This document shows, piece after piece, positions 2,381 through 57,925 of a stretch of 64,000 nt of DNA; the stretch's first letter is position 1; the number at the start of each line of letters is the position of its first letter. The position numbers were made by a program, and so were the translations under genes. The stretch is taken from NCBI GenBank assembly GCA_025454405.1, contig JALOON010000042.1, forward strand, positions 25,334-89,333. Direction: 5' to 3'. Source of the stretch: Oscillatoriaceae cyanobacterium Prado104. GTDB taxonomy: Bacteria > Cyanobacteriota > Cyanobacteriia > Cyanobacteriales > Microcoleaceae. Below the pieces are notes generated by a model, which was not told where the DNA came from, did no database searches, and saw nothing but the letters and a program-made list of their open reading frames with translations.

Positions 2381-2405
2381 CCCCCTCTCTCCCATATGAG
2401 TATTT

Positions 2406-7556: not shown

Positions 7557-7560
7557 GATG

Positions 7561-11452: not shown

Positions 11453-11469
11453 TAGTAAAGGCTCCTTTC

Positions 11470-11680
11470 AGTTAATTTTTTTGTAATATTATACCGATCG
11501 CAAATGATTTGTAAATATCTTGCTCTCTCCCCTTAATAAGGGGAGGGTTGGGGTGGGGTAAAAAATTTACAAATGATTTATGACTGCTATATACCGATTT
11601 GAGATTGGAAATTTGAGATTTGAGATTGAACTTCACAGCTTAGGTTATCGATTTGAGATTTGAGATTTAAGTTCCCAGCT
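11470..11680. repeat. Intergenic composite repeats: palindromic CCCCTTAATAAGGGG-GGGTTGGGGTGGGGT element plus GATTTGA heptamers
   Basis: The same ~60-nt element (tccccttaataaggggagggttggggtggggt) recurs at 42155-42200. Heptamer tandems occur at 11585-11680. Confidence 0.7.
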
Positions 11681-12960
11681 TAGATTTGAGCAGCCAAGAC
11701 AGGTTTTCCAGTCAAGATAACCTGTTCGATAATATCAGCAGCTTTCTTAACTGTGCCCGATCGCCCGATCGCCTTTTGCATCTCGATCGCCCTTTTTTTA
11801 TAATTCTCTTGTACCAGCACTTTCTCAACGGTCGATCGAACTTTATTCACGCTCAATTCCTTCAAAGCAACCACTTCACCAACACCTGTATAAGCAATCC
11901 GCGCCGCAATTCCCGGCTGGTCGTTCGCAATAGGAATTGCCACCATCGGTACTCCATTGCTCAACGATTCCAAAGTCGTATTCATCCCCGCGTGAGTAAT
12001 CGTGAGAGTGGCTTTTTGCAGCAGTTCCAATTGCGGTGCAAAACTAACAACTATCGGATTTCCCGGCAATGGCGGCAAAGATTCGGGACTCGCGCCTCCT
12101 CCCAGAGAAATTACCAATTGAGCATCTAAGTTTTCGCAAGCAGCAGCGAGGATTTGAAAAACATCCAACAAGCGATTTTGCACGGTTCCCATCGAAGCAT
12201 AAATCAACGGTTTGTCGGTTAATTGTTCAAAAGGAAAAGCAACTGGTTGTCGCGTTGCTGGGTTGTGAAACGGGCCGGTGAAATGAAAGTTTGGCGGTAA
12301 ATATTGCCTGGGAAAGTCGAATTCTGCCGGTTGTTGAGCGATCTGAGCGAGTTGAGAGTAATAATTTTCCGGGTCGGAGTACAAAGGTAATTTCCACTCT
12401 TTGCGATACTGGGCGATCGCATTTTGAATCGGCTTTGTCGCCAGTTCGATTAATCGATCTCCGAATTGATTGCGCCAGCGTGCTTGCCAAGTTGGACTGT
12501 ATTGCCAAGGAGTGCAAATCGGAGGAATGTTAGGTTCTCGATTCAGCATCAATGCACTGCAAACTGTGATAAAAGGAAGGTTTAGAAATTCTGCGATCGT
12601 TCCTCCTTCTATGGAAACTTGGTCTACCAGCAAAGCTTCTACACCGACTTTTTTAATAATAGCTGGAGCTTGTGAGAGAATCAGAGTTGAAACTTGCGCG
12701 ATTAAGTCGATCGTATATCGAAAAGCTGCCAATCCGCTAAGTTTTCCGAGTTTGCTCAAACTTTCTTGATTCCATCCCAAGGGAAACTCATTTTCAGCTA
12801 ATAGCTGGAATTCCAAGCCGCTTGCTAAGGTGGTGGATTCAGCATCGGGAAAACCAAATAAGGTGACTTGATGGCCTCGATGCAGCAATTCGCTACCTAA
12901 TGTTGTCATGGGGTTGAGGTGGCCGTTGGCTGTCGGACAGAGGATGCCGAAGTGAGTCAT
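11680..12960 (-). CDS. GT1-family UDP-glycosyltransferase (MGT/CrtX-like), copy 2 (tandem paralogue)
   Basis: A 426-aa ORF, collinear with and about 70% identical by eye to the 10172..11452 product over its full length. Confidence 0.8.
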   Translation of the reverse strand: MTHFGILCPTANGHLNPMTTLGSELLHRGHQVTLFGFPDAESTTLASGLEFQLLAENEFPLGWNQESLSKLGKLSGLAAFRYTIDLIAQVSTLILSQAPAIIKKVGVEALLVDQVSIEGGTIAEFLNLPFITVCSALMLNREPNIPPICTPWQYSPTWQARWRNQFGDRLIELATKPIQNAIAQYRKEWKLPLYSDPENYYSQLAQIAQQPAEFDFPRQYLPPNFHFTGPFHNPATRQPVAFPFEQLTDKPLIYASMGTVQNRLLDVFQILAAACENLDAQLVISLGGGASPESLPPLPGNPIVVSFAPQLELLQKATLTITHAGMNTTLESLSNGVPMVAIPIANDQPGIAARIAYTGVGEVVALKELSVNKVRSTVEKVLVQENYKKRAIEMQKAIGRSGTVKKAADIIEQVILTGKPVLAAQI

Positions 12961-17517: not shown

Positions 17518-17643
17518 ATCCCCCCTAGCCCCCCTTAAGAAGGGGGGGACCGGAATCCTATCGAAGTCCCCCTTAAGAAGGGGGGGACTGGAAACAGTTC
17601 AAAGTCCCCCTTTTTAAGGGGGATTTAGGGGGATCTAGACTAA
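17518..17643. repeat. Dispersed palindromic C5/G5 hairpin repeat family (CCCCCTTAAGAAGGGGGGG / AAGTCCCCCTTTTTAAGGGGGATTTAGGGGGATC)
   Basis: Related copies occur at 37355-37590, 52262-52310, 57697-57855 and 61038-61150, in both orientations. Confidence 0.8.
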
Positions 17644-30182: not shown

Positions 30183-30336
30183 AGTTTTGAGTTGTGAATT
30201 AAGAACTGTCTTTAACTCAAAACTCAAAACTCCTTACGAACTATCTTTAACTCAAAACTCAAAACTCAAAACTCAAAACTCCCGCAAACTGTCTTTAACT
30301 CAAAACTCAAAACTCAAAACTCAAAACTCAAAACTC
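30183..30336. repeat. Composite STRR-like repeat block (aactgtctttaactcaaaactcaaaactc units)
   Basis: Tandem units of the family GAGTTTTGAGTTTTGAGTTAAAGACAGTT, here in reverse-complement orientation. The inverted partner block is at 32007-32272. Confidence 0.85.
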
Positions 30337-32006: not shown

Positions 32007-32272
32007 GGAGTTTTGAGTTTTGAGTTTTGAGTTTTGAGTTAAAGACAGTTCTCAGGAGTTTTGAGTTTTGAGTTTTGAGTTTTGAGTTAAAGACAGCTTG
32101 CGGGAGTTTTGAGTTTTGAGTTAAAGACAGTTTGCGGAGTTTTGAGTTTTGAGTTAAAGACAGTTCCCAGGAGTTTTGAATTTTGAGTTTTGAGTTAAAG
32201 ACAGTTCTTAATTCAAAACTCAAAACTTATCTTAATTCAAAACTCAAAACTCAAAACTCAGAACTTCTCCTC
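32007..32272. repeat. Composite STRR-like repeat block (ggagttttgagttttgagttaaagacagtt units), inverted relative to 30183-30336
   Basis: About six copies of a ~45-nt unit. ORF 31948..32223 is an artefact of this repeat. Confidence 0.85.
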
Positions 32273-37339: not shown

Positions 37340-37600
37340 TTAACAGCGAGAGATCGATCCCCCCTAACCCCCCTTAAGAAGGGGGGGACCGGAAGTATTT
37401 AAAGTCTCCCTTTTTTAGAGTAGACTCGAAGTATTCAAAGTCCCGTTTTTTCAAGGGAAACTCGAAGTATTCAAAGTCCTCGTTTTTCAAGGGAAACTTG
37501 AAGTATTCAAAGTCCCCCCTTTTTAATGGTGGACTCGAAGTATTCAAAGTCCCCCTTTTTAAGGGGGATTTAGGGGGGTCGAGACTCGGGCAAAAATGAG
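37340..37600. repeat. C5/G5 palindromic repeat plus a ~40-bp tandem array (5 copies of actcgaagtattcaaagtccc..tttttcaagggaa)
   Basis: Direct reading of the sequence. The repeat lies between the MotB-like gene and potB. Confidence 0.8.
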
Positions 37601-37662
37601 ATTTCTTGTGGGTTTTAGTTTTAAGTTGACACCAATAGCGCTAAAGTTGTCCCTACTAAATA

Positions 37663-38517
37663 ATGAGTGTCAAAAACCGCCAGCGAATTAACTTGTTATT
37701 GCTATTATCTCCCGCTACCGCGTGGCTGATAATTTTCTTCGTTTTGCCGCTGCTAATTATCCTCGCATACAGCTTCCTCGAACGCGGGACTTACGGCGGC
37801 GTGACGGCAGTATTTACCATCAGCAACTACCAGCGTTTGTTCAACGAAATTTTTTTAGGAGTAATAGGGCGATCGATCTGGTTGGCTTTCTTAACAACAG
37901 TCGCTTGCTTGTTAGTTGGCTATCCCCTAGCATTCTTCATCGCCACCCGTCCCCCGCGCTGGCGCAATGCTTTATTATTGCTAGTAATTATCCCATTTTG
38001 GACGAACTTTTTAGTCAGAACCTACGCTTGGATGATTTTGCTGCAAACTCAAGGAGTCGTCAACACAGCCCTGCAAATCCTGCAAGTAATTAGCGAACCT
38101 TTAAATTTGCTGTTTACACCTTTTGCAGTGGCGATCGGGCTGATTTACGGCTATTTACCGTTTATGGTTTTGCCATTATATTCTAGCATAGAACGCTTCA
38201 ATTTTTCCTTAGTTGAAGCCGCGCAAGATTTAGGGGCAAATGACATCAGAACTTTTTGGCGCGTATTTTTGCCGCTAACAACCAAGGGAATAGTTGCAGG
38301 TTCCATCCTCGTTTTTGTTCCGTCAGTAGGCGCTTTCATTACACCGGATATCTTGGGAGGCGCTAAAACAATTATGGTAGGCAATTTGATTCAAAATCAG
38401 TTTTTAAAAGCCCGAGACTGGCCCTTTGGTTCCGCCCTATCCGTATTGTTGACTTTAATCGTATTAATTCCCGTCTTAATTTACTTCCGCATCTCGGATG
38501 AAACAGTTGACAGTTAG
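37663..38517 (+). CDS. potB: Spermidine/putrescine ABC transporter permease (PotB-like)
   Basis: A 284-aa ORF with six TM segments and a permease EAA loop (EAAQDLGANDIRTFWRVFLPL). Confidence 0.8.
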   Translation: MSVKNRQRINLLLLLSPATAWLIIFFVLPLLIILAYSFLERGTYGGVTAVFTISNYQRLFNEIFLGVIGRSIWLAFLTTVACLLVGYPLAFFIATRPPRWRNALLLLVIIPFWTNFLVRTYAWMILLQTQGVVNTALQILQVISEPLNLLFTPFAVAIGLIYGYLPFMVLPLYSSIERFNFSLVEAAQDLGANDIRTFWRVFLPLTTKGIVAGSILVFVPSVGAFITPDILGGAKTIMVGNLIQNQFLKARDWPFGSALSVLLTLIVLIPVLIYFRISDETVDS

Positions 38518-38650
38518 TAAGGAGTTTTGAGTTTTGAATTTTGAGTTTTGAGTTAAAGACTGTTCTGAACTATAGTTGTTAAAGCCCTATGTTTTGATGG
38601 TAAGTAAGGTGCGCACTGCGCACCCCGCAGTTATTAGTAAAGCGAGTTAC

Positions 38651-38702
38651 TAATGACTAATGACTAATGACTAATGACTAATGACTGATAACTAATGACT
38701 AA
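38651..38702. repeat. TAATGAC heptamer tandem repeat
   Basis: The unit actaatg is repeated 7 times. Confidence 0.8.
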
Positions 38703-39555
38703 ACTAGATTTATTCGTTCGATCGCACGCCAACAAATTACTGTGGATTCAAGCCGTACTGGCATTTACCTTTCTCTACTTGCCAATTCTGATCCTGATTG
38801 TTTACTCCTTCAATATTTCCAGATTTAACGCAATTTGGCGCGGTTTTACCCTCGATTGGTATCGCAGTTTATTTGTCCCTTCAACGGCAACACTTGCTAC
38901 CAGCAGCAGCGCCGGCATCTTGCCCGCACTCAACAACAGTTTATTAATTGCAACTATTTCTACCATCCTAGCAACAATTTTCGGCACCGCGATCGCCCTT
39001 GCTTTAGAACGCTTTCATTTCCCAGGGCGCAAAGCAATAGAAACCTTGCTATTTTTGCCAGTAATCATGCCAGAAATTACGATCGGCATTTCGCTGCTAG
39101 TTTTTTTTACCCTGCTATTTCGGATAATTGAAAATCTCACCGGCATTCGCCTCAACCTCGGATTGACAACAGTAATTATCGGTCACGTTGCCTTCAGCAT
39201 CTCCTTTGTTACTATAACCGTCCGCGCCCGTTTGGCAGAACTCGATCGCACCTTAGAACAAGCAGCTTTTGACTTGGGCGCTAACGAATGGCGGACTTTT
39301 TGGCGAATTACTTTTCCCTTAATTTGGCCCGGAATTTTCAGCGCAGCCCTGCTAGCTTTTACACTGTCCCTCGATGATTTTGTCATCACATTTTTTACTA
39401 CCGGCGTCGGTACGATGACACTGCCGCTGTTCGTTTACGGTCAAATTAAATTTGCCGTGACACCAGCAATTAATGCGATCTCAACTTTGATGTTGCTAGC
39501 ATCTTTATTGCTAGTTGTATCGTCCCTAACAGTTCGGAAAACAGTTGACAGTTGA
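38695..39555 (+). CDS. potC: Spermidine/putrescine ABC transporter permease (PotC-like)
   Basis: A 286-aa ORF with an EAA loop (EQAAFDLGANEWRTFWRITFPL). Confidence 0.8.
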   Translation: MTKLDLFVRSHANKLLWIQAVLAFTFLYLPILILIVYSFNISRFNAIWRGFTLDWYRSLFVPSTATLATSSSAGILPALNNSLLIATISTILATIFGTAIALALERFHFPGRKAIETLLFLPVIMPEITIGISLLVFFTLLFRIIENLTGIRLNLGLTTVIIGHVAFSISFVTITVRARLAELDRTLEQAAFDLGANEWRTFWRITFPLIWPGIFSAALLAFTLSLDDFVITFFTTGVGTMTLPLFVYGQIKFAVTPAINAISTLMLLASLLLVVSSLTVRKTVDS

Positions 39556-39699
39556 CAGTTGACAATTGACAGCAAACCGTTGAGTTGTAGGGGTTCTTTC
39601 ACCAACAATCTGTAAATTTGACGATCGATCTCATAAACCCGCCCCAGACAGTTGACAATTATGTGCCATAATAAGTGTCGCAGACAAGCAAGAAAAATT

Positions 39700-40761
39700 A
39701 TGAAACGCCTGTTGACCTTCCTACTTTTGTTTGCGATTAGCGCCATACTGCCTCTCGGCTGTAGCAGCAACACCAGCAACCAACAACAAGTTCTCAGCAT
39801 TTACAATTATGCCACTTACATCGCCCCAGAAGCGATCGCCCAATTCGAGAAAGAAAACAACGTTAAAATTCAATACGACAACTTCGAGAACAGCGAGGCA
39901 CTTTATGCCAAACTCAAACAGGGAAATCCGGGTTACGATTTAATCTTTCCCGCCGACTACATGGTAAAAATCATGGCGACAGAAAATATAATTGAACCCT
40001 TGAATCTCAACAACATTCCTAACCAAAAAAACCTCGAACCTAAATTCCTCAATCAATCTTTTGACCCCGGCAATAAATATTCCCTGCCCTACCAATGGGG
40101 AACGATGGGAATTGGCTACAACTTGAAAGCAACCAAAGACGAAATCAACAGTTTGACGGCGATGTTCGATCCGAAATATACAGGAAAAATCGCGTGGCAA
40201 GACGACAGCAGATACACCTTTGCCGCCGCTTTAATGTATTTAGGATTCGACCCCAATACAACCAACCCCGAAGAAATTAACAAAGCCCGAGATTTGCTAG
40301 TTAAAAACAAAAGCATCATCGCAGCTTTTGTTCCCGATACCGGTCAAGACTTGCTCGATCGAGGAGAAGTCAATTTGACATTAGAATGGAGTGGCGATAT
40401 CTTTCAAGTAATGAAAGAAAATCCTAATATCCGCTATGCTATTCCCAAAGAAGGAACCATCATCTTTACCGACAACATGGCGATTCCCAAAGGTGCGCCG
40501 AATAAAGAATTAGCTGAGAAATTTATTAACTTCATTTTGCAGCCAGAAATAGGCGCAAAAATATCCAACTTTATCCACTTCGGATCGCCCAACAAAGCAG
40601 CAATTGACCGAGGCTTAATCGACCCCAAAGACTTTAAAAACCCTCAAATTTACCCGCCTGCTGAAGTATTCGCTAAAATGAAATTCTTGCAAGATGTCGG
40701 GCAAGCTACTACACTGTACGATCGAGCCTGGACAGAAGTCAAAGCAGCAGCCGGAAAATAG
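39700..40761 (+). CDS. potD: Spermidine/putrescine-binding periplasmic lipoprotein (PotD-like)
   Basis: The start is taken at MKRLLTFLLLFAISAILPLGCSS, which has an LPLGC lipobox. The PotD-like core is YDLIFPADYM ... WQWGTMGIGYN. Confidence 0.8.
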   Translation: MKRLLTFLLLFAISAILPLGCSSNTSNQQQVLSIYNYATYIAPEAIAQFEKENNVKIQYDNFENSEALYAKLKQGNPGYDLIFPADYMVKIMATENIIEPLNLNNIPNQKNLEPKFLNQSFDPGNKYSLPYQWGTMGIGYNLKATKDEINSLTAMFDPKYTGKIAWQDDSRYTFAAALMYLGFDPNTTNPEEINKARDLLVKNKSIIAAFVPDTGQDLLDRGEVNLTLEWSGDIFQVMKENPNIRYAIPKEGTIIFTDNMAIPKGAPNKELAEKFINFILQPEIGAKISNFIHFGSPNKAAIDRGLIDPKDFKNPQIYPPAEVFAKMKFLQDVGQATTLYDRAWTEVKAAAGK

Positions 40762-40770
40762 TTGACAATT

Positions 40771-40968
40771 GGTAAGGAGTTTTGAGTTTTGAATTTTGAG
40801 TTTTGAGTTAAAGACAGTTCTGAAGTTCACAACTCAAAACTTAAAACTCAGAATTTCCCTTCTTCCTTCTTCCTTCTTCCCTGTTCCCTGTTCTCTGTTC
40901 CCTGTTCTCTGTTCCCTGTTCCCTATTCCTTCTTCCTTCTTCCTTCTTCCTTCTTCCTTCTTCCTTCA
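40771..40968. repeat. Composite repeat: heptamer STRR block, TTCCTTC heptamers and TTCCCTG/TTCTCTG heptamers
   Basis: Direct reading of the sequence. ORF 40796..41038 is an artefact. Confidence 0.85.
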
Positions 40969-40971
40969 AAA

Positions 40972-42072
40972 ATGCACTCGATCGAACTCACCAACTTTTC
41001 CAAAATATATCAAACTAACCGCGGCCAAGATTTCCTAGCTGTAGATAACCTCAACCTGCAAATTTACGATCGAGAATTCTTTTCTTTACTCGGCCCTTCC
41101 GGCTGCGGCAAAACCACAACCTTGCGAACGATTGCAGGTTTTGAAAACCCCACAGCCGGCGAAATTTACATTCACGGGCAACCCATGCACAACCGCCCGC
41201 CATTTCACCGCCCGGTAAATACAGTATTTCAAAACTATGCTTTATTTCCCCACATGACCGTAGCACAAAACGTCGCATTTGGGTTAGAAATGGAGAATTT
41301 ACCTGCTCAAAAAATTCGCGATCGCGCTGCAGAAGTTTTAGCATTAGTACAGTTAACAGATTTAGCAAAACGCTATCCCCGCCAACTCTCGGGAGGGCAG
41401 CAACAGCGGGTAGCGCTGGCGAGGGCTTTAGTCAAACAACCGTCGGTTTTGCTGTTAGATGAACCTTTAGGCGCGCTAGATTTTAAATTGCGCAAAGAGA
41501 TGCAATTAGAATTAAAAAAAATGCAGCGCAAGCTGGGAATTACCTTTATTTACGTCACGCACGATCGCGAAGAAGCCCTCACGATGTCCGACAGAATTGC
41601 AGTGATGGATCGGGGACAATTGCAGCAAGTTGGCAGCCCGATCGAGATGTACGAACATCCTAAAAATCGGTTTGTAGCAGAATTTATTGGCGACAGCAAT
41701 TTTTTGACCGGGCGAGTTGCCGAAAAGCAAAATAGTAATATAATAGTAGTAGTTGACGAACAATTGCCCGTGTTAGTTGCAACAGCAGAAGATGTACCGA
41801 TCGGTCAAATTGTTACTCTCGTCTTGCGACCGGAAAAAGCCGCAATTTATCCGGGCGATTCAGCAGTTGAAAATAGCTGGCCCGCAACGATCGAAGAAGC
41901 AGTTTATACCGGCACCGATACCCGCTATACAGTGCGGTTGACTGCCAAAAGCTCGATCGCAATTCGCAGGCAAAACTTGCACCGAGATAACTTGCAGCAA
42001 CACCAAACAGGCGATAACGTGCGCGTCGCCGTTCCGCCGGAAAGCCTGTCGATTTTAGATTTTAGATTTTAG
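40972..42072 (+). CDS. potA: Spermidine/putrescine import ATP-binding protein (PotA-like ABC ATPase)
   Basis: Walker A GPSGCGKTT, the ABC signature LSGGQQQRVALARAL, Walker B LLLDEPLGALD, and a C-terminal TOBE-like domain. Confidence 0.85.
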   Translation: MHSIELTNFSKIYQTNRGQDFLAVDNLNLQIYDREFFSLLGPSGCGKTTTLRTIAGFENPTAGEIYIHGQPMHNRPPFHRPVNTVFQNYALFPHMTVAQNVAFGLEMENLPAQKIRDRAAEVLALVQLTDLAKRYPRQLSGGQQQRVALARALVKQPSVLLLDEPLGALDFKLRKEMQLELKKMQRKLGITFIYVTHDREEALTMSDRIAVMDRGQLQQVGSPIEMYEHPKNRFVAEFIGDSNFLTGRVAEKQNSNIIVVVDEQLPVLVATAEDVPIGQIVTLVLRPEKAAIYPGDSAVENSWPATIEEAVYTGTDTRYTVRLTAKSSIAIRRQNLHRDNLQQHQTGDNVRVAVPPESLSILDFRF

Positions 42073-42380: not shown

Positions 42381-42641
42381 ATGGAAGCATCAGAAAAAAC
42401 TATCAGCATCGGAGATGCAGCCAAACAGCTAGGAATTTCAACTACAACATTGAGGAAGTGGGCAGACACAGGAAAAATTCGTTTTAAGTATTCGCTTTCC
42501 GGTCAAAGAAGGTTCTTCTTGGAAGACATCCAATCTATGACACCAAGAGAATTAAATCAGTTAAGCAACTCCATAACCGTCAATTACGATCGCTTCTCGC
42601 GTTACGGCTTGATGCACGACGATCGATCGGGTCAAGAGTAA
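42381..42641 (+). CDS. MerR-superfamily / excisionase-type helix-turn-helix DNA-binding protein
   Basis: ISIGDAAKQLGISTTTLRKWADTGKI is a classic MerR/Xis HTH near the N-terminus. Length 86 aa. Confidence 0.55.
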   Translation: MEASEKTISIGDAAKQLGISTTTLRKWADTGKIRFKYSLSGQRRFFLEDIQSMTPRELNQLSNSITVNYDRFSRYGLMHDDRSGQE

Positions 42642-42936: not shown

Positions 42937-43965
42937 TTAGCTCATGCCAGACATTTCTTGCTGGATTTGGCTCTTCGCTGACTTGAATTGAGTAGCCATT
43001 TGTTCCATTTGCGCTTCGCTGAGATTGCGGCGAATTTGAGGGAACATATCGTTTTCTTCTTGACGAACGTGGTCTTGAACTGCTTGTTTGAGCTGTTGAA
43101 TTTGACCTTTGAAATTAGAAGAAGTGGGGTTCAGAGACTTAATTTGGGCGAGCATTTGCTTCATTTGCGCTTGCTCGTCGTACAGTTCTTGCGTATCGCC
43201 GTAGTAGCTGCGCACTGCAGGATAAACAATTTGTTCTTCCGCTTCGGAGTGAACGCTTAGGTCTTTGTAAAGCTGACCGAAGAATTCTTGCAGTTTTTGC
43301 GGATCGTCGGTTTTTTCGATTTCCATAAATAGGGTATCGACTTTGCGGTGATCCATTGAGATGATTTCGGTAATATTCATCTCATCTTTGCTGCGGGTAA
43401 CAGCACCGCCGATGATGCCGGTCATGGCAGCCATCGCATCTTGCACGCGAGCCCAAACGCCTTGGTCGGGGTCTTTTCCTGTGAGTTCGCGCACGCCCAA
43501 AATTTCCAGAACTCCCTTGAGTTGTTCTTGGTGAGCGCGGTTTTCAAAGTTAACTGTGTTGAGGGGAGTAATCGCAGCTTCGATGTCAGCGCCGACGACT
43601 TGAGCAGCTTTGTGAATTAACAAACCGGTCATTGTTTGTTTGTGTTTGAGCAGTTCGTGCTGGCCGACTTTTTCAAACAAAGTAAGTTCAGAACCTTGCA
43701 TCAGTTTCTGAGCTTCTTCAATCATTTTTGTGACTGTTTCTTTGGGTTCGACTTGAATGCCGTATTGGACGATCGTAGTTTCCAATACTCCCATGTTTTT
43801 CCGATCGTCCTCAAGCATATCGCGGAAGCGCTGGGACAGTTCGGAATCGTTGCAGGAGTTGATGAACATTTCCTCGTTGGCGATCAGCAGCTTTTGCAAA
43901 GCTTTCATGTCTGCCAATTTCATCGCGATCGCTTGGCGCTTGGTATCTTCTAGAGTAGCTACCAT
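42937..43965 (-). CDS. Hemerythrin HHE cation-binding domain protein with N-terminal helical domain
   Basis: The C-terminal half carries hemerythrin-like His/Glu ligands (ISMDHRKVDTLF ... HSEAEEQIVYPAV ... VQDHVRQEENDMFPQI). Confidence 0.7.
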   Translation of the reverse strand: MVATLEDTKRQAIAMKLADMKALQKLLIANEEMFINSCNDSELSQRFRDMLEDDRKNMGVLETTIVQYGIQVEPKETVTKMIEEAQKLMQGSELTLFEKVGQHELLKHKQTMTGLLIHKAAQVVGADIEAAITPLNTVNFENRAHQEQLKGVLEILGVRELTGKDPDQGVWARVQDAMAAMTGIIGGAVTRSKDEMNITEIISMDHRKVDTLFMEIEKTDDPQKLQEFFGQLYKDLSVHSEAEEQIVYPAVRSYYGDTQELYDEQAQMKQMLAQIKSLNPTSSNFKGQIQQLKQAVQDHVRQEENDMFPQIRRNLSEAQMEQMATQFKSAKSQIQQEMSGMS

Positions 43966-43989
43966 CTGTCGTTTCTCCTCTCAATGTGT

Positions 43990-44395
43990 TTTGTGTTCTG
44001 ACATCTTTTAATGTATTGAAATACTCAGATAACATCCTCTTTCTCCCGACCGATCCGTCAATCTCTCGTAAAAGCTATTGACGTTTCAAACTAAAAATGG
44101 TAATAAACAGTTGATAGCAGACAGTTGACAATCTTCAATCCCTCCGCTACGGTTCCTCTGGGCTGCGCTTCCCCTCCACAACGCGAGTGCCCAATGGAAA
44201 CTCGAAAATCGAAAATCGTTTGACAGTTGACAGCAAACTGTTGAGACAGGAAGCGCGATCGCGATCGCATGAAACTGCTGAGTATCGGTAGCGCAGACCA
44301 AAAACAATGCAACGGCAAGCAAGTTTCAAACCCTGACCACATCAAACATTAAAAATAGAAGAAAATCGAAAATCAAAAATCGAAAATGAGATTCG
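43990..44395. repeat. Copy A of a duplicated ~350-400 bp non-coding element (copy B at 48930-49295)
   Basis: Runs of 10-40 identical nucleotides are shared with copy B (taatgtattgaaatactca.ataacat...tctttctcccgacc...tccgtcaat.tctcg.aaaa.ctattgac.ttt.aaactaaaaatggta...gttgacagcaaactgttgagacaggaagcgcgatcgcgatcg..tgaaactgct.ag.a.cg.tagc.cagaccaaaaacaat.caacggca.gcaag.tt.caa.cctgacc.catcaaa). Confidence 0.75.
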
Positions 44396-44396
44396 C

Positions 44397-45668
44397 TTAC
44401 CCTTCTTTGTCTGGATGGAGCGGCATTTTAGCGTTGCGCAAGCGCACCAGTTCGTCTCGCCAGGAGGCGACAATCGGATCTTTGTCCGCAGCCTGACCCA
44501 TCTGCTTCACCCGCCATTTGCGAATTGCCAGTTTATTTTGCGCCCGGACGATCGCCCCTGAGGTGCGCCGGTCGGTATCCTGAATGTGACGGGTTCTGAA
44601 AATTCGATCGCCCTTCACCGCTTGATACTCCTCTGGAGTAATCGCAGGTTCGACCTCATCCGCCAATGCTTCGACAATTACTTGGCGTTCCCAAAGGCCG
44701 CTCTGCCAAAGCATCGCCCCCGCAATCAGAAAAAAAGGCAAAAAGCCCACCAATCGCAAACCGCTATGCTGCAGCCATTGCGTCAGAAAAGGTTGCACCG
44801 CAACCTCCGGTACTGCTTTCGCCACAGATTCCTCGGGCAACGGTTTGCCGCTTAAAAAGAAAAACAAAAACAGCAACATCCCCACGGCATTGTTGAGAAA
44901 GTGAGCCGAAAACCCCAGCAACCAAGCTCCCACCGGAGCAGCATAGCGCAACCAGTGGCGGGTGGTTTGGCGGGCGAGTCCCAAACCCATGCCAAACAGC
45001 CCCGAAAACAGCGCATGACCCCCAAACCCAAACAAGGAAAAGCGATCGGCCATCTGAAAATAAAGCGGCACATCCCCTTTTTCGAGAAATCCGTGGGTTA
45101 CGTACAAAGGGGCTTCCAGCAGGTTAAAGCCAATCCCAACCAGCGCACCGTAGATAAAACCATCTCGAACGCCATCAAACTCTGCTTTCAGCAACCAAAA
45201 CAAGAGCAAAATTCCTGCCCCTTTGGTGATTTCTTCCACGGGAGGTCCCGATAAGGGCGCTCCCAGGATCGACTGAGCCTGGGGACCGAAAAGCGCCTGC
45301 ACCTCAGGATGCAGTTTCACAAAATTGCCGATATTTGCGAAGATCGCGCCATTGATGGGCAGAGCCAATCCGGTGGCAATCAGCGCTCCCCACAATAGCG
45401 CGATCGCGTACAGCCACCGGGATTCAGGTTCCCGACGATCGAGAAACCGCAAAATAGCGAGGGGAAGGATTGCCATTAACAGGCTTCCTGCCAAACCAAT
45501 TAAAAATACTTGGAAAGCCGCGGGAGACAGTTGTGAAAAAAAGCCGCGCATCAGTGCGGACGTGCTAATGACTACCAGCACCGCCAGCGCGATCGCGACG
45601 AGTTTAGCAATTTTGGGGCTACTCAGCGGAGAACCGTACAGAACGCGACCTCGAGCATTGAGTGACAT
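44397..45668 (-). CDS. PrsW-family intramembrane metalloprotease
   Basis: Multi-TM protein with the PrsW motifs EEITKGAGILLLFW (EExxK) and FIYGALVGIGFNLLE (FxxxGF..E), plus a later His-containing helix. Confidence 0.7.
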   Translation of the reverse strand: MSLNARGRVLYGSPLSSPKIAKLVAIALAVLVVISTSALMRGFFSQLSPAAFQVFLIGLAGSLLMAILPLAILRFLDRREPESRWLYAIALLWGALIATGLALPINGAIFANIGNFVKLHPEVQALFGPQAQSILGAPLSGPPVEEITKGAGILLLFWLLKAEFDGVRDGFIYGALVGIGFNLLEAPLYVTHGFLEKGDVPLYFQMADRFSLFGFGGHALFSGLFGMGLGLARQTTRHWLRYAAPVGAWLLGFSAHFLNNAVGMLLFLFFFLSGKPLPEESVAKAVPEVAVQPFLTQWLQHSGLRLVGFLPFFLIAGAMLWQSGLWERQVIVEALADEVEPAITPEEYQAVKGDRIFRTRHIQDTDRRTSGAIVRAQNKLAIRKWRVKQMGQAADKDPIVASWRDELVRLRNAKMPLHPDKEG

Positions 45669-45810
45669 GAAAACCTCAGATAAATTATTTAGATTTGGGA
45701 TTTGCGATATGAGATTGAGAAAACTGCCCGGTTAAAGCGTAAAACATTAAAGTCCCGCAAAAGAGAAGCTGTTTCTTGAAAATGCCTTAGCGTGCGATCG
45801 TGGCAAAAAC

Positions 45811-47337
45811 TTAATCCGTCACAAAAATCGGTTTGACTTTGCTGAGGCAACTACTGTCCGGCTTTTGCTTGGGGTTCGTCAGAAAATCTCGGGCGATTTG
45901 AGTCGCACAGTCGGCTGCAGGCATATCTGGCGGAGAAAATAAAGCACCATGACCCACCCCAGGGAAGGTGTAGACATAGGCATTTTTCAAGTTACTGGCA
46001 ACCGCTTCCCCATAGGGCTGCGGCGTAACCGGATCGTAGGTGCCGTTGAACACCAGTGTGGGAATTTCAGTATTCTTGTAGGCAAAGGGTTTCTGTTGCT
46101 CAACCTGAAGAATCTTGCAGATTTGTTCGTTCCCTTCCTCCGCGAGGACGATTAGTTGCGGGTAGGGAGGCGGAAACAAAGAGGACGGCTTAACCCGGAT
46201 CGAACTCGTGCGGGCGCAAAGAACTGTATGGTACATCTCCTTTGCGTCCTTGTCTTCTAAGCCACCAGAAAGATTCTCCTCGACCCAACGAATATTCCCT
46301 TTGGTTGCTGCATCGATCCGGCTGGGCAAAAAGCGGCTGAGTGCCGATTTGTACAGGTAAGGTAAAATGCTCACCAAAAATTTGTCGCCATCCAGCTTGG
46401 ACGCAATGGTTTTCTGGCTGGATGGAATCGTCAGAGTGATGGGAATCGGTTGCTGGTTGAGTCGATCGACCAACGAAAGAAATTTCTTTTCCAGATCGGG
46501 ATAGGCTCGATTGCACTTTAGGTCTTTGGCACAGTCGGCGAACAGGTTGCGCAGGGCGTAACTCATCGTGTGTCCGATAGCCAGGTTAAAGTCAATATCA
46601 GGTCTGACCACACCATCAATGAGTACGCTCCGCAGTTTGGGTTTGTGTTCGTCTGCTTGCGCAAGCACGTATTGCCCCAGCAGCGTCCCGTAGGACACTC
46701 CGTAGTAATTAAACTCGTCGTAGCCCAGTACTTGGGCCACAAAATAGATATCAGCCGCGTTTTCTCTGGTGTTAAAGGCACTCGTATTAATTCCCTGTGC
46801 GATCGAGCGTTTGTTACAAGCCTCGATCCAACCGAGATCCTTCGGATCGCGTTCCCCTTTGGCAACGGCAATATTGTGAGCGTTTAACTCCGGGCAAGAC
46901 AGGAAGGGTTTAGAATGCTCAGTGCCTCGCTCTTCAACAAATATCAGATCGCGACTCTGCAACAGGGCTGGCAGTTCAGTATAACTGGGCAATGCTTGAT
47001 TGACGAAGACACCGATCGTCGTTGAACCGGGACCGCCCTGTTCCACAAAGAGCGGGTCTGGGGCAGGGTTATTGCCAATGCTGCGAGTTCTGACAACTGC
47101 TAGTTCGATCGTCCTACCGTCTTGTTTGCTGTGTCGTTCGGGTACTGTGACATAGCCACAGTCCGACAACGCAGCAGCTAAGGCAGGAACGCCAAAGGTC
47201 TTGCAGTCAACTGACTTCCACGCCGCACCAAATTGGGCGCGGTTCGCTGTCGTGGTATTGGCAACGCCACTGCTGGCGGCGACAAAGGCTGCGGTGAGAA
47301 CGGTTAGTTTACAAAAGCGCGTAACGGAAGTTTGCAT
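45811..47337 (-). CDS. Secreted alpha/beta-hydrolase (TAP / S33-like peptidase family)
   Basis: Signal peptide, nucleophile elbow GVSYGT, and a C-terminal TAP-like region with a conserved His (GVGHGA). Confidence 0.7.
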   Translation of the reverse strand: MQTSVTRFCKLTVLTAAFVAASSGVANTTTANRAQFGAAWKSVDCKTFGVPALAAALSDCGYVTVPERHSKQDGRTIELAVVRTRSIGNNPAPDPLFVEQGGPGSTTIGVFVNQALPSYTELPALLQSRDLIFVEERGTEHSKPFLSCPELNAHNIAVAKGERDPKDLGWIEACNKRSIAQGINTSAFNTRENAADIYFVAQVLGYDEFNYYGVSYGTLLGQYVLAQADEHKPKLRSVLIDGVVRPDIDFNLAIGHTMSYALRNLFADCAKDLKCNRAYPDLEKKFLSLVDRLNQQPIPITLTIPSSQKTIASKLDGDKFLVSILPYLYKSALSRFLPSRIDAATKGNIRWVEENLSGGLEDKDAKEMYHTVLCARTSSIRVKPSSLFPPPYPQLIVLAEEGNEQICKILQVEQQKPFAYKNTEIPTLVFNGTYDPVTPQPYGEAVASNLKNAYVYTFPGVGHGALFSPPDMPAADCATQIARDFLTNPKQKPDSSCLSKVKPIFVTD

Positions 47338-47396
47338 GGTTAATTTTCCTTATCGATCGATCTAGAGCAGTTCCTATAGGACAGAGGGCAAAGGAT

Positions 47397-47852
47397 CTAG
47401 TAGATATAGATCGCACCGCCTGAATTCACTTCAAGGGAGCGCGTGAGGCCGTAGGTTCCTGGTTTGGAGGTGACGGTTACAATGAGTTCGTTATTTACGA
47501 CCGCAATGTCGGCGCGTAAATTTGTATCTTTGACATTGGTATAAATAGTCAAATCAATGGGGGGTGGCAAATAGCTGGTATGGAGCGCGCCAAAGGTCAC
47601 CGACTGCTGGGGCTTTACGCTGCGTTCGCGTGAGGTTGGTTCTACCAACACGACCTGGATATCTACGCTCGACTGATTCGCAACACGAATCTGGATCGGT
47701 TTGCTGGGATTAATTTGGGCAACGGGCGATCGGCGGTCGTTTTGCTGCGGAAGACCCGGAACAGGGGCGCTCTGTTGGGCTGCAGTTGGTGTAATTGGGG
47801 CGATCGCGCCTATTATTAGCAAACTCGCCCCAATCAAACTATTTAATTTCAT
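47397..47852 (-). CDS. Hypothetical secreted protein
   Basis: The start is taken at MKLNSLIGASLLIIGAIAPITPTAAQ (signal peptide), with GAGGAG 8 nt upstream. The table ORF extends further to 47960. Confidence 0.5.
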   Translation of the reverse strand: MKLNSLIGASLLIIGAIAPITPTAAQQSAPVPGLPQQNDRRSPVAQINPSKPIQIRVANQSSVDIQVVLVEPTSRERSVKPQQSVTFGALHTSYLPPPIDLTIYTNVKDTNLRADIAVVNNELIVTVTSKPGTYGLTRSLEVNSGGAIYIY

Positions 47853-48153
47853 CAAATATTGGCTCCTCAAAAAGTTGCTCCGAACGCAAAATCTAAATTT
47901 CAGCACTCTGACGATATAGATATATAGCTTGGTGGTAGGTGATATCAATTCCTGTTGCATCGGTATGAGATGTTAGGCACGCTTCAAAGAGCAGTATCAA
48001 ACTATATAATTCCGAATCAACCGGAAACCATATGAGGTACAGAAACAACCTCAAAAATCCTGAAATTTACAGAATTAGCGTGCACCTCACGTTCGCGACG
48101 CTATAAAACTATCGGAGTGCTTAGCCAAAATAGGTTTGATTTAGATTCCTGCG

Positions 48154-48783
48154 TTACAAATTACCTTCATTCACGTCGGTGTATTGATAGTTGTAAAACT
48201 CCGTTCCAGTCGCCTCGTTAATGATGACTACTCGTGCCTTTTCTCGATCGTACATGACCCGCACCCGTCCGTCGGAACCACTAAATTTATTGCCCGAAGT
48301 GCGCGTTAAAACACCAGAGAAATTGAACTCTCCTTCTGTAATTTGCACCTCTATTTGGTTGGCATTGCGGGCAGTCATTTTCGTTGATGGAATCTTTGAT
48401 GCTTGGCTGGATGAAGGTTGACTGGACTGATTAGAAGCAGCAGCGTTACTCCAGTAAACATAGATCGATTCATTGGCGAGGCGATAAATTTGCCCTCTGT
48501 CGCCGAGTCCTTCTTGCCGGTAGGCCTCACGACCATTTTGGTCGCGATAATTGCCCGGTCGATCGCCCGCCGGAGTTAATTCATAGCGTTTGCCATTTTT
48601 CAGTTGGATGCTAACGGCACCCTGTCTTTGCGAAAAGGTACAGGGACTTGAAGACGTGGCGCGATCTTCCCCTTTTGGATACAGGTCACAACGGGCATTC
48701 ACCGTGTCTGCTAAAGCAATATCAGTAATACCGCAAGAGGCGATCGCCGCTGCCATCGCTAACAACGAATTTGCAAGTTTCAT
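48154..48783 (-). CDS. Hypothetical secreted protein (signal peptide, Cys pairs)
   Basis: A 209-aa ORF beginning MKLANSLLAMAAAIASCGITDIALA. Confidence 0.5.
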   Translation of the reverse strand: MKLANSLLAMAAAIASCGITDIALADTVNARCDLYPKGEDRATSSSPCTFSQRQGAVSIQLKNGKRYELTPAGDRPGNYRDQNGREAYRQEGLGDRGQIYRLANESIYVYWSNAAASNQSSQPSSSQASKIPSTKMTARNANQIEVQITEGEFNFSGVLTRTSGNKFSGSDGRVRVMYDREKARVVIINEATGTEFYNYQYTDVNEGNL

Positions 48784-48929
48784 TCCAGGGAAATCTCCTA
48801 ATATAGAGGGGGACCACGAACAGGATATTTAAAATAAACTCATGGCGGGAGTTACAGTTTTGCCATTAAGCCCGATCGCTGCTGGCTGTGAAAATAATAC
48901 AACTTCTCTAGTGAATAGATAAACAAAGC

Positions 48930-49295
48930 TACGGAAATTTTTAATGTATTGAAATACTCAAATAACATTTTCTTTCTCCCGACCCCTCCGTCAATATCTC
49001 GCAAAAACTATTGACTTTTTAAACTAAAAATGGTACAGAACAATTGATAGCTAACAGTTGACAGTTGACAGGGCTGAAGTTGGAAGAGTTGACGGTTGAC
49101 AGTTGACAGCAAACAGTTTGACAGCAAACTGTTGAGACAGGAAGCGCGATCGCGATCGTTTGAAACTGCTCAGCACCGCTAGCACAGACCAAAAACAATC
49201 CAACGGCAGGCAAGCTTCCAATCCTGACCCCATCAAAAATCGAAAATCCCAAATCCCAAATCCCAAATCAAAAACGGTATCAACTTACCCCGATC
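48930..49295. repeat. Copy B of the duplicated non-coding element (see 43990-44395); includes TTGACAG and AAATCCC heptamer runs
   Basis: See copy A. The small ORFs 49019..49252 and 49051..49266 are artefacts. Confidence 0.75.
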
Positions 49296-49359
49296 GTCGA
49301 GCACTAAAGCGCTAACATAGTTGGAATCGAAATTAACTATAGTTTAAGAATTAAGTAGC

Positions 49360-50625
49360 TTGTCTCAACTCCTCACTGCTTTAGAGTTCCCAGCCAATGT
49401 CTGGAAGCTTAACAACGGGTTAACAGTCATTCACCAGCGTGTTTCGGCCACACCGGTGGTCGCGCTTGATGTGTGGGTAAAAGCTGGCGCAACGCTAGAG
49501 CCAGATTCGTGGTCGGGAATGGCTCACTTTCTAGAACACATGATATTTAAAGGGACTGACACGATCGCCCCTGGAGAATTTGATTGGATCGTAGAAAATG
49601 GCGGCGGCATCGCCAACGCAGCTACCAGCCACGATTACGCACATTTTTTTGTCACAGCCGCCGCCGACTATTTAGCAGAAACAGCGAAACCGCTGGCCCA
49701 ATTGCTGCTGCGCGCTGCGATTCCCGATGCAGAATTCGATCGCGAGCGACATGTCGTACTCGAAGAAATCCGCCAAGCTCAGGATAATCCAGACTGGATC
49801 GCTTTTCAGGCGCTGATGGAAACAGTTTACGAACACCATCCTTACAGGCGTTCGGTATTGGGCACCGAAGAATTGCTGCTGTCGCGATCTCCCCACGAAA
49901 TGCGCTGCTTCCACCGAGAGCACTATCAGCCGGAAAATATGACTGTGGTAATCGTCGGCGGCATTGGCGAACAACAAGCAATGGACTTAGCCTTCGAGGC
50001 TTTCGATCCGTTTTTCGACAGGTGGGACTGCCCGAAAATGGAAATAGAAGCCGAACCGCCGCTGGTAGAAATTCGCCGTCAAGAAATCTACCTCCCGAGA
50101 TTGGAACAAGCCAGACTGCTGATGGCTTGGACTGGGCCGGGAGTAGAACACTTGCAAAGTGCTTGCGGCTTGGATTTGCTCTCGGTATTGCTCGCAGACG
50201 GGCGGACTTCGCGCTTGGTCAGAGAACTGCGGGAAGAATTACAATTAGTAGAGGCGATCGGCAGCTCTTTCTCGCTGCAGCGGGAGTCGAGTTTGTTTAC
50301 TATCAGTGCTGTCTTGGAACCGCAGCACCTCGCAGAAGTAGAAGCTCGAATTTGCGATTTGCTGTGCCAATTGCAGTCACAGCCAATTTCCGAGGCAGAA
50401 TTGCACCGTTCCCAGCGCTTGCTGTGCAACGATTTTGCATTTTCGATCGAAACCCCCGGACAACTGGCCGGTCTTTACGGGTACTACAATACGATCGCCA
50501 GTGCTGAATTGGGAATGGCCTATCCGAGCAGAATTAAGTCATTCCAGCCCTCGGACTTGCAGCGCTTAACTCAACAGTATCTTTCTCCCCAACGCTACGC
50601 CGCGGTGGTGTTGAAACCAGCCTAA
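49360..50625 (+). CDS. M16-family zinc peptidase (pitrilysin/insulinase-like), active subunit
   Basis: Inverted zinc motif HFLEH with a downstream Glu (MAHFLEHMIFKGT). Length 421 aa. Confidence 0.85.
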   Translation: MSQLLTALEFPANVWKLNNGLTVIHQRVSATPVVALDVWVKAGATLEPDSWSGMAHFLEHMIFKGTDTIAPGEFDWIVENGGGIANAATSHDYAHFFVTAAADYLAETAKPLAQLLLRAAIPDAEFDRERHVVLEEIRQAQDNPDWIAFQALMETVYEHHPYRRSVLGTEELLLSRSPHEMRCFHREHYQPENMTVVIVGGIGEQQAMDLAFEAFDPFFDRWDCPKMEIEAEPPLVEIRRQEIYLPRLEQARLLMAWTGPGVEHLQSACGLDLLSVLLADGRTSRLVRELREELQLVEAIGSSFSLQRESSLFTISAVLEPQHLAEVEARICDLLCQLQSQPISEAELHRSQRLLCNDFAFSIETPGQLAGLYGYYNTIASAELGMAYPSRIKSFQPSDLQRLTQQYLSPQRYAAVVLKPA

Positions 50626-50675
50626 AACTAATCTAATTAGGTGACAGTAAGTATCCAATTTATTCAAAAGCTCGA

Positions 50676-50870
50676 ATTGATGCAAAATCGGCAAGATCTA
50701 TTGATGCAAAATTGGCAAGCTCTATTGATGCAAAATTGGCAAGCTCTAATTTATTCAAAGGTCGCGAGCGGGGACGCTCGCACTCTCATGTATTCCTACA
50801 AGATCGCGAGCGGGGACGCTTGCAATTTCAGACATTCCCACAAAGCCGCGAGCGGGGACGCTCGCACTGT
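50676..50870. repeat. Two adjacent tandem repeats: 3 x 24 bp (ttgatgcaaaattggcaagctcta), then ~2.5 x 44 bp units carrying a palindrome GCGAGCGGGGACGCTCGC
   Basis: Read directly from the sequence. The spacers between hairpin copies resemble each other (..attcc.acaa..), so this is a tandem repeat and not a CRISPR array. ORF 50641..50952 is an artefact. Confidence 0.8.
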
Positions 50871-50955
50871 CGATGATACAACTGGAAGCGATATTACCGA
50901 TTTCCTATTCTCAATTATTGATTGCCGATTACTAAATTACCGATCGAACTAAGCA

Positions 50956-52224
50956 ATGAAACATGAAATCCGCCGCACAGTTTTAGACAACGGTATCGTT
51001 GTCTTGGCATCAGAAAATCCCGCAGCAGATATTATTGCAGCTAGAATATTTCTCCGCGCTGGCAGCCGCTGGGTGCAGCCGGAACAAGCAGGATTGTGCC
51101 ACTTGCTGTCGGCTGTAATTACAAAAGGAACCGATCGGCTGTCTTCTTTAGAAATTGCCGAGCGCGTAGAATCGGTAGGAGCGAGGCTGAGTGCAGACAC
51201 GACAACCGACTATTTTTTAGTAAGTTTAAAAACAGTTTCCGCCGACTTTACCGATATTTTGGCACTAGCAGGGGAATTGCTGCGATCGCCCACATTTCCC
51301 GAAGCCGAAGTCGAACTCGAACGCCGAATTGCCCTATCGGCAATTCGATCGCAGCGAGAACAGCCGTTTGCCATCGCTTTCGAGCAACTGCGACACGCCA
51401 TGTACGGCGAACATCCCTACGCTTTCTCACCCCTGGGTTCGGAAGCTACCATGTCGCAACTTACTAGAGCCGATCTCGAACAGTTTCACAAAACCTATTT
51501 TCGCCCAGATAATGTAGTTATTTCTGTTGCCGGTCGGATTGCACCCGAAGATGCGATCGCCGAAATCGAGCGCGTGTTTGGCGACTGGAAAGCGCCCGCT
51601 ACGCCCCTGCCAACTTTAAGCGTACCCCTCATCTTCACCCAACCGCGATCGACCGTAACGCCTCAAGAAACGCAGCAATCGGTGATTATGCTGGGCTACC
51701 TGGCACCAGCAGTAAAACAGCCCGACTACGCAGCGATGAAGTTGCTCAACACCTATCTCGGCAACGGTTTGTCGAGTCGGTTGTTTGTGGAATTGCGGGA
51801 AAAGCGGGGCTTAGCTTACGACGTTTCCGCACTGTACGCGACGCGCTTGGATGAGGCGCAATTTGTCACGTACATGGGTACGGCACCGGAGAATACAGTG
51901 ACTGCTTTTGAAGGATTGCGTACAGAGGTCGATCGACTGGCTAGCATTCAATTAGATGAAGCAGAATTGCAAGCTTGCAAGAATAAAATGCTCGGTCAAT
52001 ATGCCTTAGGAAAACAAACTAATTCGCAAATCGCGCAAGTTTTAGGTTGGTACGAAACCTTAGGATTGGGAATCGAGTTCGATCGAGAGTTTCAAGAAGA
52101 AATTGCAGCGGTAACTACCTTCCAAGCGCGGGAAGCTGCTCAGAAATACTTCATCGAACCGTATATTTCATTAGTCGGACCTGAGGTCGCGATCGCAGAA
52201 TTGGGCGCAGCCGCTGTTAGTTAG
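50956..52224 (+). CDS. M16-family peptidase, non-catalytic partner subunit
   Basis: Same fold as the 49360 gene, but the HxxEH site is replaced (HLLSAVITKGT). It is the typical second member of cyanobacterial processing-protease pairs. Confidence 0.8.
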   Translation: MKHEIRRTVLDNGIVVLASENPAADIIAARIFLRAGSRWVQPEQAGLCHLLSAVITKGTDRLSSLEIAERVESVGARLSADTTTDYFLVSLKTVSADFTDILALAGELLRSPTFPEAEVELERRIALSAIRSQREQPFAIAFEQLRHAMYGEHPYAFSPLGSEATMSQLTRADLEQFHKTYFRPDNVVISVAGRIAPEDAIAEIERVFGDWKAPATPLPTLSVPLIFTQPRSTVTPQETQQSVIMLGYLAPAVKQPDYAAMKLLNTYLGNGLSSRLFVELREKRGLAYDVSALYATRLDEAQFVTYMGTAPENTVTAFEGLRTEVDRLASIQLDEAELQACKNKMLGQYALGKQTNSQIAQVLGWYETLGLGIEFDREFQEEIAAVTTFQAREAAQKYFIEPYISLVGPEVAIAELGAAAVS

Positions 52225-57639: not shown

Positions 57640-57925
57640 TAAGGTGCGCACTGCGCACCACGATTTGCCGGCCTCTAGGTGCGTTTTAAAATCCGATCCC
57701 CCCCAGCCCCCCTTAACAAGGGGGGAGCAAGAGCGTCATTTCAAAGTCCCCCTTCTTAAGGGGGATTTAGGGGGATCGAAACTTCAGGAAAAAAGCAAGA
57801 GTGTCATTTCAAAGTCCCCCTTCTTAAGGGGGATTTAGGGGGATCGAAACTTCGGAAAAAACGAGGTATTTAGAAAAGTTTTCTTTGAACATGACACACT
57901 TTGTCGCGCAGTGCGCACCCTACTA
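57640..57925. repeat. Repeat-rich spacer: GTAAGGTGCGCACTGCGCACC palindromic element (2 copies) and two ~70-bp C5/G5 units
   Basis: The 17-nt hairpin GGTGCGCA-C-TGCGCACC also occurs at 13163, 20121 and 38611. Confidence 0.8.

Follow-up and report, generated by a model that had tools for sequence, protein, structure and literature searches.

The stretch of DNA analysed here, referred to as the window, comprises 64,000 nucleotides (nt) of the metagenome-assembled genome (MAG) of Oscillatoriaceae cyanobacterium Prado104 (assembly GCA_025454405.1, contig JALOON010000042.1, positions 25,334–89,333); all coordinates are given as window positions. It contains two similar non-coding segments, copy A and copy B, which enclose a block of four minus-strand genes between a gene for a hemerythrin-domain protein and a pair of M16 peptidase genes (Table 1). 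An initial annotation, made from the letters of the window alone, had described the two segments as a duplicated element upstream of unrelated genes and had proposed three readings: a small non-coding RNA gene, a shared promoter or regulatory module, and a non-autonomous mobile element.

Table 1. Features of the hemerythrin–M16 locus (window positions; aa, amino acids; ORF, open reading frame).
Feature	Position	Strand	Size	Remarks
MerR-family gene	42381–42641			Small; between ABC transporter and hemerythrin gene
Hemerythrin-domain protein	42937–43965	-	342 aa	Pfam PF01814, E = 1.6e-18
Hemerythrin leader	43966–44005	-	40 nt	Contains ribosome-binding site (GAGAGGAG on minus strand); aligns with all relatives, not with copy B; single-copy
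Copy A of duplicated hemerythrin–M16 spacer	44006–44402		397 nt	Adjoins hemerythrin gene; left side runs on into hemerythrin leader as in relatives
Candidate -10 hexamer TACATT for hemerythrin	44010–44015 (copy: 48943–48948)	-		Consensus-based; in copy B faces 209-aa gene
Block 1	44006–44130 (A), 48939–49063 (B)		125 nt	87% identical; hemerythrin-proximal part of ancestral spacer
TTGAC(G/T) + 17 nt + TAnnnA	44078–44106 (copy: 49011–49039)	+		Directed towards M16; conserved in alignment
Block 2	44227–44356 (A), 49118–49247 (B)		130 nt	88% identical; lineage-specific spacer part
CTTACCC	44396–44402, 49284–49290		7 nt	Final nucleotides common to copies A and B; read from sequence
Inserted four-gene block	44403–48938	-	4536 nt	Between copies A and B
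PrsW-family intramembrane protease	44397–45668	-	423 aa	Last gene of inserted block; Pfam PF13367, E = 9e-35
Alpha/beta hydrolase	45811–47337	-	508 aa	In inserted block; Pfam PF00561 and PF08386
Uncharacterised gene	47397–47960	-	187 aa (ORF)	In inserted block; called as 151 aa in L011 and L028
209-aa protein	48154–48783	-	209 aa	First gene of inserted block; no family match
Copy B of duplicated spacer	48939–49290		352 nt	Adjoins M16 gene; right side continues into conserved M16-proximal sequence
M16-proximal spacer part	49291–49359	+	69 nt	Single-copy; within 49277–49359 match to relatives
M16 peptidase, first of pair	49360–50625	+	421 aa	Pfam PF00675 and PF05193
M16 peptidase, second of pair	50956–52224	+		Pfam

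Copies A and B are direct repeats in the same orientation. Searching copy A against the window with blastn aligned 44006–44402 to 48939–49290 at 71.8% identity over 397 gapped columns (E = 6e-60); all other matches in the 64 kb were short heptamer runs, so that exactly two copies are present. A repeat search of positions 43000–50500 resolved the similarity into blocks 1 and 2, both of which are non-repetitive, the heptamers being confined to the variable middle between them and to the 3' tail. In the pairwise alignment the middle consists of TTGACAG-type heptamers plus ∼70 nt exclusive to copy A, and the tail following block 2 is built of AAAATCG or CCCAAAT units. Block 2 includes a run of 41 nt that is identical in the two copies, and both copies start with TTTT (44006 and 48939). 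The E value together with the non-repetitive nature of the blocks places the repeat far beyond chance and shows that it is no low-complexity artefact. The initial annotation had allowed for the similarity being restricted to the heptamers, which it had correctly seen in both copies; the similarity instead extends through both unique blocks. Its estimate of 80–85% identity over ∼350 bp described a real repeat, the measured values being 87–88% within the blocks and ∼72% for the whole element with gaps, and its limits of 43990–44395 and 48930–49295 are replaced by those in Table 1. Copy A does not abut the hemerythrin gene as had been stated, since it starts 40 nt from the start codon (43965); it is the other end of the copy, CTTACCC, that overlaps a gene, namely the stop codon of PrsW (44397–44399). 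From copy B the distance to the downstream start codon is 155 nt for the 209-aa gene (48783) and 69 nt for the M16 gene (49360); the initial annotation had given ∼150 bp upstream of a secreted-protein gene and a position upstream of M16.

Exact-protein look-ups of the window genes yielded nothing but short Logan contigs from the source sample, and these were used for checking junctions and not for counting copies. Contigs from run SRR12684587, which were assembled independently, were 100% identical to the window at the junctions hemerythrin/copy A (L001), copy A/PrsW (L011) and 209-aa gene/copy B (L010). Three of the four junctions are thus confirmed in the source sample and the two-copy structure in the MAG is not an assembly artefact. 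Tandem arrays of heptamers are very frequent in the intergenic DNA of the window (GAGTTTT, TTCTTCC, AGTTGAC, GATTTGA and ACTAATG; for example at 505–563, 2231–2327, 30249–30336, 32008–32265, 40858–40967 and 63857–64000), and they explain both the heptamer runs inside copies A and B and the contig breaks in the Logan assemblies.

For comparison, DNA was fetched around the hemerythrin orthologues of 11 related Microcoleus loci (L012–L021 and L041), comprising four P0004 assemblies, Microcoleus vaginatus, two herbarium-derived assemblies, which are the closest relatives (93% protein identity), three P0005 assemblies and one contig from the Joint Genome Institute (JGI); L041 was obtained through P0012. 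The hemerythrin gene and the M16 pair were immediate divergent neighbours in all 11, separated by one spacer of ∼270–480 nt, and none of the four genes of the inserted block was found between them. In both copies, block 1 has its homologue in the hemerythrin-proximal part of this spacer (70–78% identity): copy A is 73–78% identical to L012, L016, L017, L019 and L041, and copy B, at 70–73%, is slightly further diverged from the relatives. As regards block 1, the repeated sequence is therefore single-copy at the orthologous site in the 11 insert-free loci. The 40-nt hemerythrin leader is conserved in the relatives and missing from copy B. On the other side, positions 49277–49359 are 79% identical to L016–L018 and 78% identical to L012–L015 and L019–L021, in which the matching sequence stands directly upstream of the M16 gene; the stretch 49291–49359, conserved in the relatives, is missing beside copy A. 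When aligned to the relatives, the left flank of copy A and the right flank of copy B together rebuild the uninterrupted ancestral site. From these flank alignments the order in the window is hemerythrin, leader, copy A, four genes, copy B, M16-proximal stretch and M16. The count is two copies in the window and a single hemerythrin–M16 spacer in relatives, and the single-spacer state was found in every sampled lineage outside the group formed by Prado104, L024 and L032.

The genes on the two sides of copy A contrast in the closeness of their homologues. Orthologues of the hemerythrin protein are 87–93% identical across Microcoleus and Tychonema, whereas homologues of PrsW reach at most 69% (at most 68% in named Microcoleus), apart from its own 90% cluster and one Logan match at 85%; the inserted block accordingly lacks a close counterpart among named Microcoleus genomes. 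The block has a GC content of 50.0%, compared with 43.6% and 46.2% in the neighbouring gene regions. Searches of Pfam and further family collections found no recombinase or transposase domain in the block and no family match for the 151/187-aa and 209-aa proteins, and plasmid and phage collections yielded a single 95-nt match and nothing else. Homologues of the 209-aa protein occur in many filamentous cyanobacteria, some of them named secreted or SH3-domain proteins by their sources.

Two further sets of sequences carry parts of the block at the same locus or with part of the spacer. In Logan contigs L032–L037 the 209-aa gene lies between M16 and hemerythrin, with the block decayed and no remaining duplication. 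Read from the hemerythrin side, these contigs run through block 1 and the heptamer middle into the first part of block 2, which is followed by a 29-nt fragment of PrsW and a 60-nt fragment of the 151/187-aa gene; next comes the 209-aa gene together with the 155 nt upstream of it, and after these block 2 resumes with its second half and leads into the M16-proximal sequence. In L024–L027, PrsW (90% nucleotide identity) has the same left-hand context as in the window: heptamers come next, and then a diverged version of the first half of block 2, for which the Smith–Waterman score in L024 was 33 compared with 16.3 ± 2.3 for shuffled sequences (0 of 500 shuffles reached 33); to the other half of block 2 this region showed marginal similarity that was not collinear. 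The end points of the inserted block are the same in the window, L032 and L024.

Taken together, the two segments are very probably one and the same resident hemerythrin–M16 spacer, present twice and flanking an inserted four-gene block. With high confidence the feature can be regarded as an ordinary rearrangement scar, an insertion-associated duplication of a resident intergenic region. In the ancestral Microcoleus state the hemerythrin gene and the first M16 gene would have been read outwards from a single spacer, into which a 4.5 kb block of four same-strand genes was inserted in the lineage of Prado104; a direct repeat of nearly the whole spacer (∼350–400 nt) would thereby have come to flank the block, and the parts still single-copy are the hemerythrin leader (40 nt) and the M16-proximal stretch (69 nt). 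The copies would since have diverged to 87–88% in the unique blocks, the heptamer arrays being altered by gain and loss of units. With respect to the time of the event, L032 groups with copy A in block 1 (92.4% identity, compared with 86.7% between copies A and B and 87.6% between copy B and L032), the second half of block 2 gives an unresolved trichotomy of A, B and L032 (11, 10 and 12 supporting sites), and copy B is slightly further diverged than copy A from all outgroups. From the distances in the two blocks the duplication appears to be old, about the age of the split between the window and L032 lineages.

The likeliest single event would be a copy-and-paste error during replication or repair, with template switching at short identities: synthesis would leave the spacer at its right end CTTACCC, copy the block, re-enter at the left end TTTT and copy the spacer once more. 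The two novel junctions do show identities of this kind, CTTACCC (7 nt) at the spacer/PrsW end and TTTT (4 nt) between the 209-aa upstream end and the spacer, and CTTACCC at the PrsW stop codon may represent junction microhomology; a template-switch origin resting on these identities is proposed with low confidence. Microhomology-mediated template switching, known as fork stalling and template switching or microhomology-mediated break-induced replication (FoSTeS/MMBIR), yields insertions flanked by duplicated target and has been described mostly in eukaryotes. The locus resembles such products in having two novel junctions with a few identical bases and a distant segment inserted together with a duplication of the insertion point, and differs from them in that the source copy of the block was not seen in the window and that the microhomologies are short. 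PMC5120786 is one example of work on such template switching.

Several observations weigh against a duplicated resident spacer, or against parts of the scheme. Junction identities of 4 and 7 nt are short and could be due to chance. Block 2 was not found in any relative with an uninterrupted spacer, neither in the single spacers of L012–L021 nor in two collection scans (described below); its assignment to the ancestral spacer is made because in L032 its second half adjoins M16-proximal sequence, and also on account of L024. L032 itself carries no duplication and could descend by deletion from an ancestor resembling the window, or could represent an independent insertion of the same block elsewhere in the spacer. 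The ABC transporter abuts PrsW in locus L028 and lies 2.3 kb away in the window, beyond the MerR-family and hemerythrin genes; a simple insertion does not explain this position, which sits awkwardly both with template switching and with the crossover considered below, so more than one rearrangement has affected the region. Finally, a promoter scan called neither the TACATT nor the TTGAC(G/T)–TAnnnA motif of block 1, the latter because its second hexamer ends in A and not in T.

The alternative that survives best keeps the identity of the repeats and changes the route. A circular DNA consisting of the four-gene block and one spacer copy, which could have been released from a related strain through recombination of the repeats flanking it there, would have entered the cell and been taken up into the resident spacer through a single homologous crossover. 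Integration of this Campbell type, as in suicide-plasmid insertions, leaves direct repeats beside the integrated DNA. The direct target repeats around the insert are the classical product of a single crossover, and as in such integrants there are two target copies of hundreds of base pairs in the same orientation and no recombinase gene in the insert. In block 1, copy B is about equidistant from copy A (86.7%) and from L032 (87.6%), as expected if one copy were a diverged donor allele. The lineages also exchange DNA within the block, as is seen from L028 (99–100% identity in the interior and 80–93% at the ends), and PMC10923798 describes gene flow among Microcoleus lineages. The window departs from typical integrants in that the copies are 12–13% diverged, no vector or circle is known and a different mechanism must be invoked for the initial linkage of spacer and block: integration would explain the spread of the arrangement and not its origin, which still calls for an illegitimate event. 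Among the few sequences available, neither repeat copy proved to be chimeric, with its two halves nearest to different relatives, and neither a circular form nor an empty site was observed. The identity patterns of copies A and B are compatible with a crossover of this kind without being diagnostic, and it is considered possible, though on the unlikely side.

The evidence for exchange comes from L028–L031 (JGI metagenomes), which have the four genes in the same order between a TPR gene and an ABC transporter gene. In L028 a MutS2–DUF3038–DUF4335–TPR block and an ABC transporter block directly flank the four genes, whereas the window places the MutS2-to-TPR block ∼41 kb and the ABC transporter block ∼2.3 kb from them, in the same orientation. 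The hydrolase gene of L028 is interrupted by an IS605-family TnpB gene (11109–12395), which is also present in L029–L031 and is not at that place in the window. The identity between the window and L028 forms a mosaic, being 99–100% across most of the interior of the block (44977–46576 and 47358–48557, including 600 nt without a difference), 80–93% at both of its ends and 87–91% in the flanking blocks (1–7560 and 37660–42061). The pattern is interpreted as a tract of recent recombination within a block that was already present in the two lineages. Homology to L028 fades ∼10–20 nt inside each end of the block. The PrsW tail after LRLR is variable in all homologues and is shortest in L028, those of L024 and of the distant homologues P0159 and P0164 being equally long; as a clue to the polarity of the L028 junction, these tails are suggestive only. 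The block thus occurs in at least three junction contexts, namely the duplicated spacer of the window, the TPR/ABC transporter site of L028 and other points of the spacer in L024 and L032. It is a doubtful proposition that the block behaves as a movable cassette without a recombinase of its own, in which case the long direct repeats might let it be excised as a circle and re-enter naive Microcoleus genomes at the hemerythrin–M16 spacer by homologous recombination.

The reverse polarity, in which copies and block are ancestral and the 11 single-spacer relatives have lost the block, is improbable. Recombination between direct repeats of 350–400 nt would delete the block precisely and leave one spacer, and L032 demonstrates that the block can decay at this locus. 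A deletion between the repeats would, however, have kept block 2, which the single spacers of the relatives do not contain. The absence of a close PrsW homologue from named Microcoleus genomes (at most 68% identity), the deviating GC content of the inserted block and the single spacer of all sampled lineages other than the group of Prado104, L024 and L032 also speak for gain and not loss.

Still less probable are a small non-coding RNA gene, as initially proposed, and a cis-regulatory RNA, in either case with selection on the transcript keeping the copies alike. The conserved TTGAC–17–TAnnnA motif could start a plus-strand transcript through block 2, and copy A folds somewhat better than shuffled sequences on the plus strand (z = -2.1). 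The z-scores of the two copies disagree, however: those of copy A are -2.1 and -1.5, whereas copy B, with +0.4 and +0.6, gives no signal on either strand. Rfam returned no match at the gathering threshold for the whole window and, for both copies at E values up to 10, only eukaryotic and CRISPR models at chance level; the terminator scan found no terminator. The 41-nt identical run in block 2, which counts in favour of an RNA, is by our estimate not unusual at 87% identity over ∼250 nt. Nor is block 2 detectably conserved outside the lineage, whether in other Microcoleus spacers or in the two collection scans: its core GAGACAGGAAGCGCGATCG gave eight non-cyanobacterial chance matches and no cyanobacterial one in GTDB (one genome per species), and a second pattern, GACCAAAAACAATNCAACGGCA, gave only two unrelated contigs in JGI metagenomes. 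The insertion fully accounts for the duplication.

Short dispersed repeats, among them miniature inverted-repeat transposable elements (MITEs), occur in cyanobacteria, and the copies share with them their non-coding nature, a length of a few hundred base pairs, heptamer runs and an intergenic location. That a MITE-like non-autonomous element of 350–400 nt landed upstream of two unrelated genes in a genome rich in small repeats is nevertheless scarcely credible, since only two copies occur in the 64 kb, the collection scans with the two block 2 patterns gave chance matches only, the ends of neither copy form an inverted repeat, the flanks (GACATC/TTCTTT for copy A and GGAAAT/CGATCG for copy B) show no target-site duplication, and block 1 is resident, being single-copy at the orthologous site in the 11 related loci and continuous with the hemerythrin leader.

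Of the three readings offered at first, a shared promoter or regulatory module came closest. Block 1 is the only part of the repeat conserved across the genus and lies where the control region of the hemerythrin gene must be. A TA(C/A)ATT hexamer, 4 nt inside the repeat boundary, occurs at the same position in copies A and B, in L032 and in all relatives, and within the TTGAC(G/T)–TAnnnA motif TATTGAC and GGTA are invariant in 8 of 8 aligned sequences. None of the promoter-like calls of the scan was common to both copies. From these motifs and their position, the repeated spacer probably carries the hemerythrin promoter. Copy A would then leave the hemerythrin gene its upstream control region, and copy B would do the same for the M16 gene; with TACATT as the -10 hexamer, copy B would start transcription ∼150 nt upstream of the 209-aa gene. 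With moderate confidence a promoter capture is proposed, in which the hemerythrin-type control region of copy B faces the inserted same-strand genes and could drive them. The two genes would have the spacer in common because it was duplicated when the gene block entered it, and not because of autonomous spread.

Homologous upstream sequences before non-homologous genes have been termed putative mobile promoters (Matus-Garcia et al., 2012, PMC3488235), defined by at least 50 nt of at least 80% identity within the first 100–150 nt upstream of the start codons, and cyanobacteria, Anabaena variabilis and Cyanothece being examples, are among the genomes richest in such families (PMC3488235). The present case is similar in that 125 nt of promoter-region DNA, 87% identical, stand upstream of two unrelated genes. 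The length and identity of block 1 lie within this definition; its position does so incompletely, as it lies 41–165 nt upstream of the hemerythrin gene in copy A and, outside the defined range, 156–280 nt upstream of the 209-aa gene in copy B. It also differs from a mobile promoter in mechanism, because here a block was inserted into a promoter region and the promoter itself did not move.

Some further features of the region were recorded. Against the NCBIfam model for ribosome-binding persister proteins of the PA2171 family, the C-terminal half of the hemerythrin protein scores 79 bits, which is below the cut-off of 190 bits; some database entries for orthologues of the hemerythrin protein are named DNA nickase. 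The gap between the two M16 genes (50668–50939) is filled by tandem repeats (24 nt × 3.3, 42 nt × 2.6 and 21 nt × 1.9). An IS605-family OrfB/TnpB gene lies between the two M16 genes of L041 (3149–4339) and a fragment of one near the hemerythrin locus in L014 (14369–14722); neither is at that place in the window. A separate dispersed family in the window consists of G/C-clamped hairpin repeats of the form CCCC(C)TTnnnAAGGGG(G), in some copies bordered by conserved sequence, for example AAAGT...GATTTAGGGGGAT, at 11529, 13106, 17529–17638, 37368–37578, 42162, 52282, 57707–57861 and 61055–61131. Some of these are in tandem (a 36-nt unit × 4.8 at 37392–37565 and a 68-nt unit × 2 at 57726–57861), and one stands just beyond the ABC transporter block, ahead of the MerR-family gene.

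The explanation put forward here, a duplicated target spacer around an insertion, is an ordinary one and will not surprise specialists in bacterial genome evolution. It removes a false lead, in that comparison with a dozen relatives turns what appeared to be a regulatory RNA or MITE upstream of unrelated genes into a duplicated target spacer. It also provides a clean, datable natural example in which inserted genes can come to stand behind a duplicate of a resident control region and both original neighbours retain theirs, a route to the expression of newly acquired genes that has so far mostly been a matter of statistical inference. In this Microcoleus group the hemerythrin–M16 spacer is a place of accessory-gene gain, exchange and decay and, if the block does behave as a movable cassette, it would be a hotspot for accessory-gene exchange.

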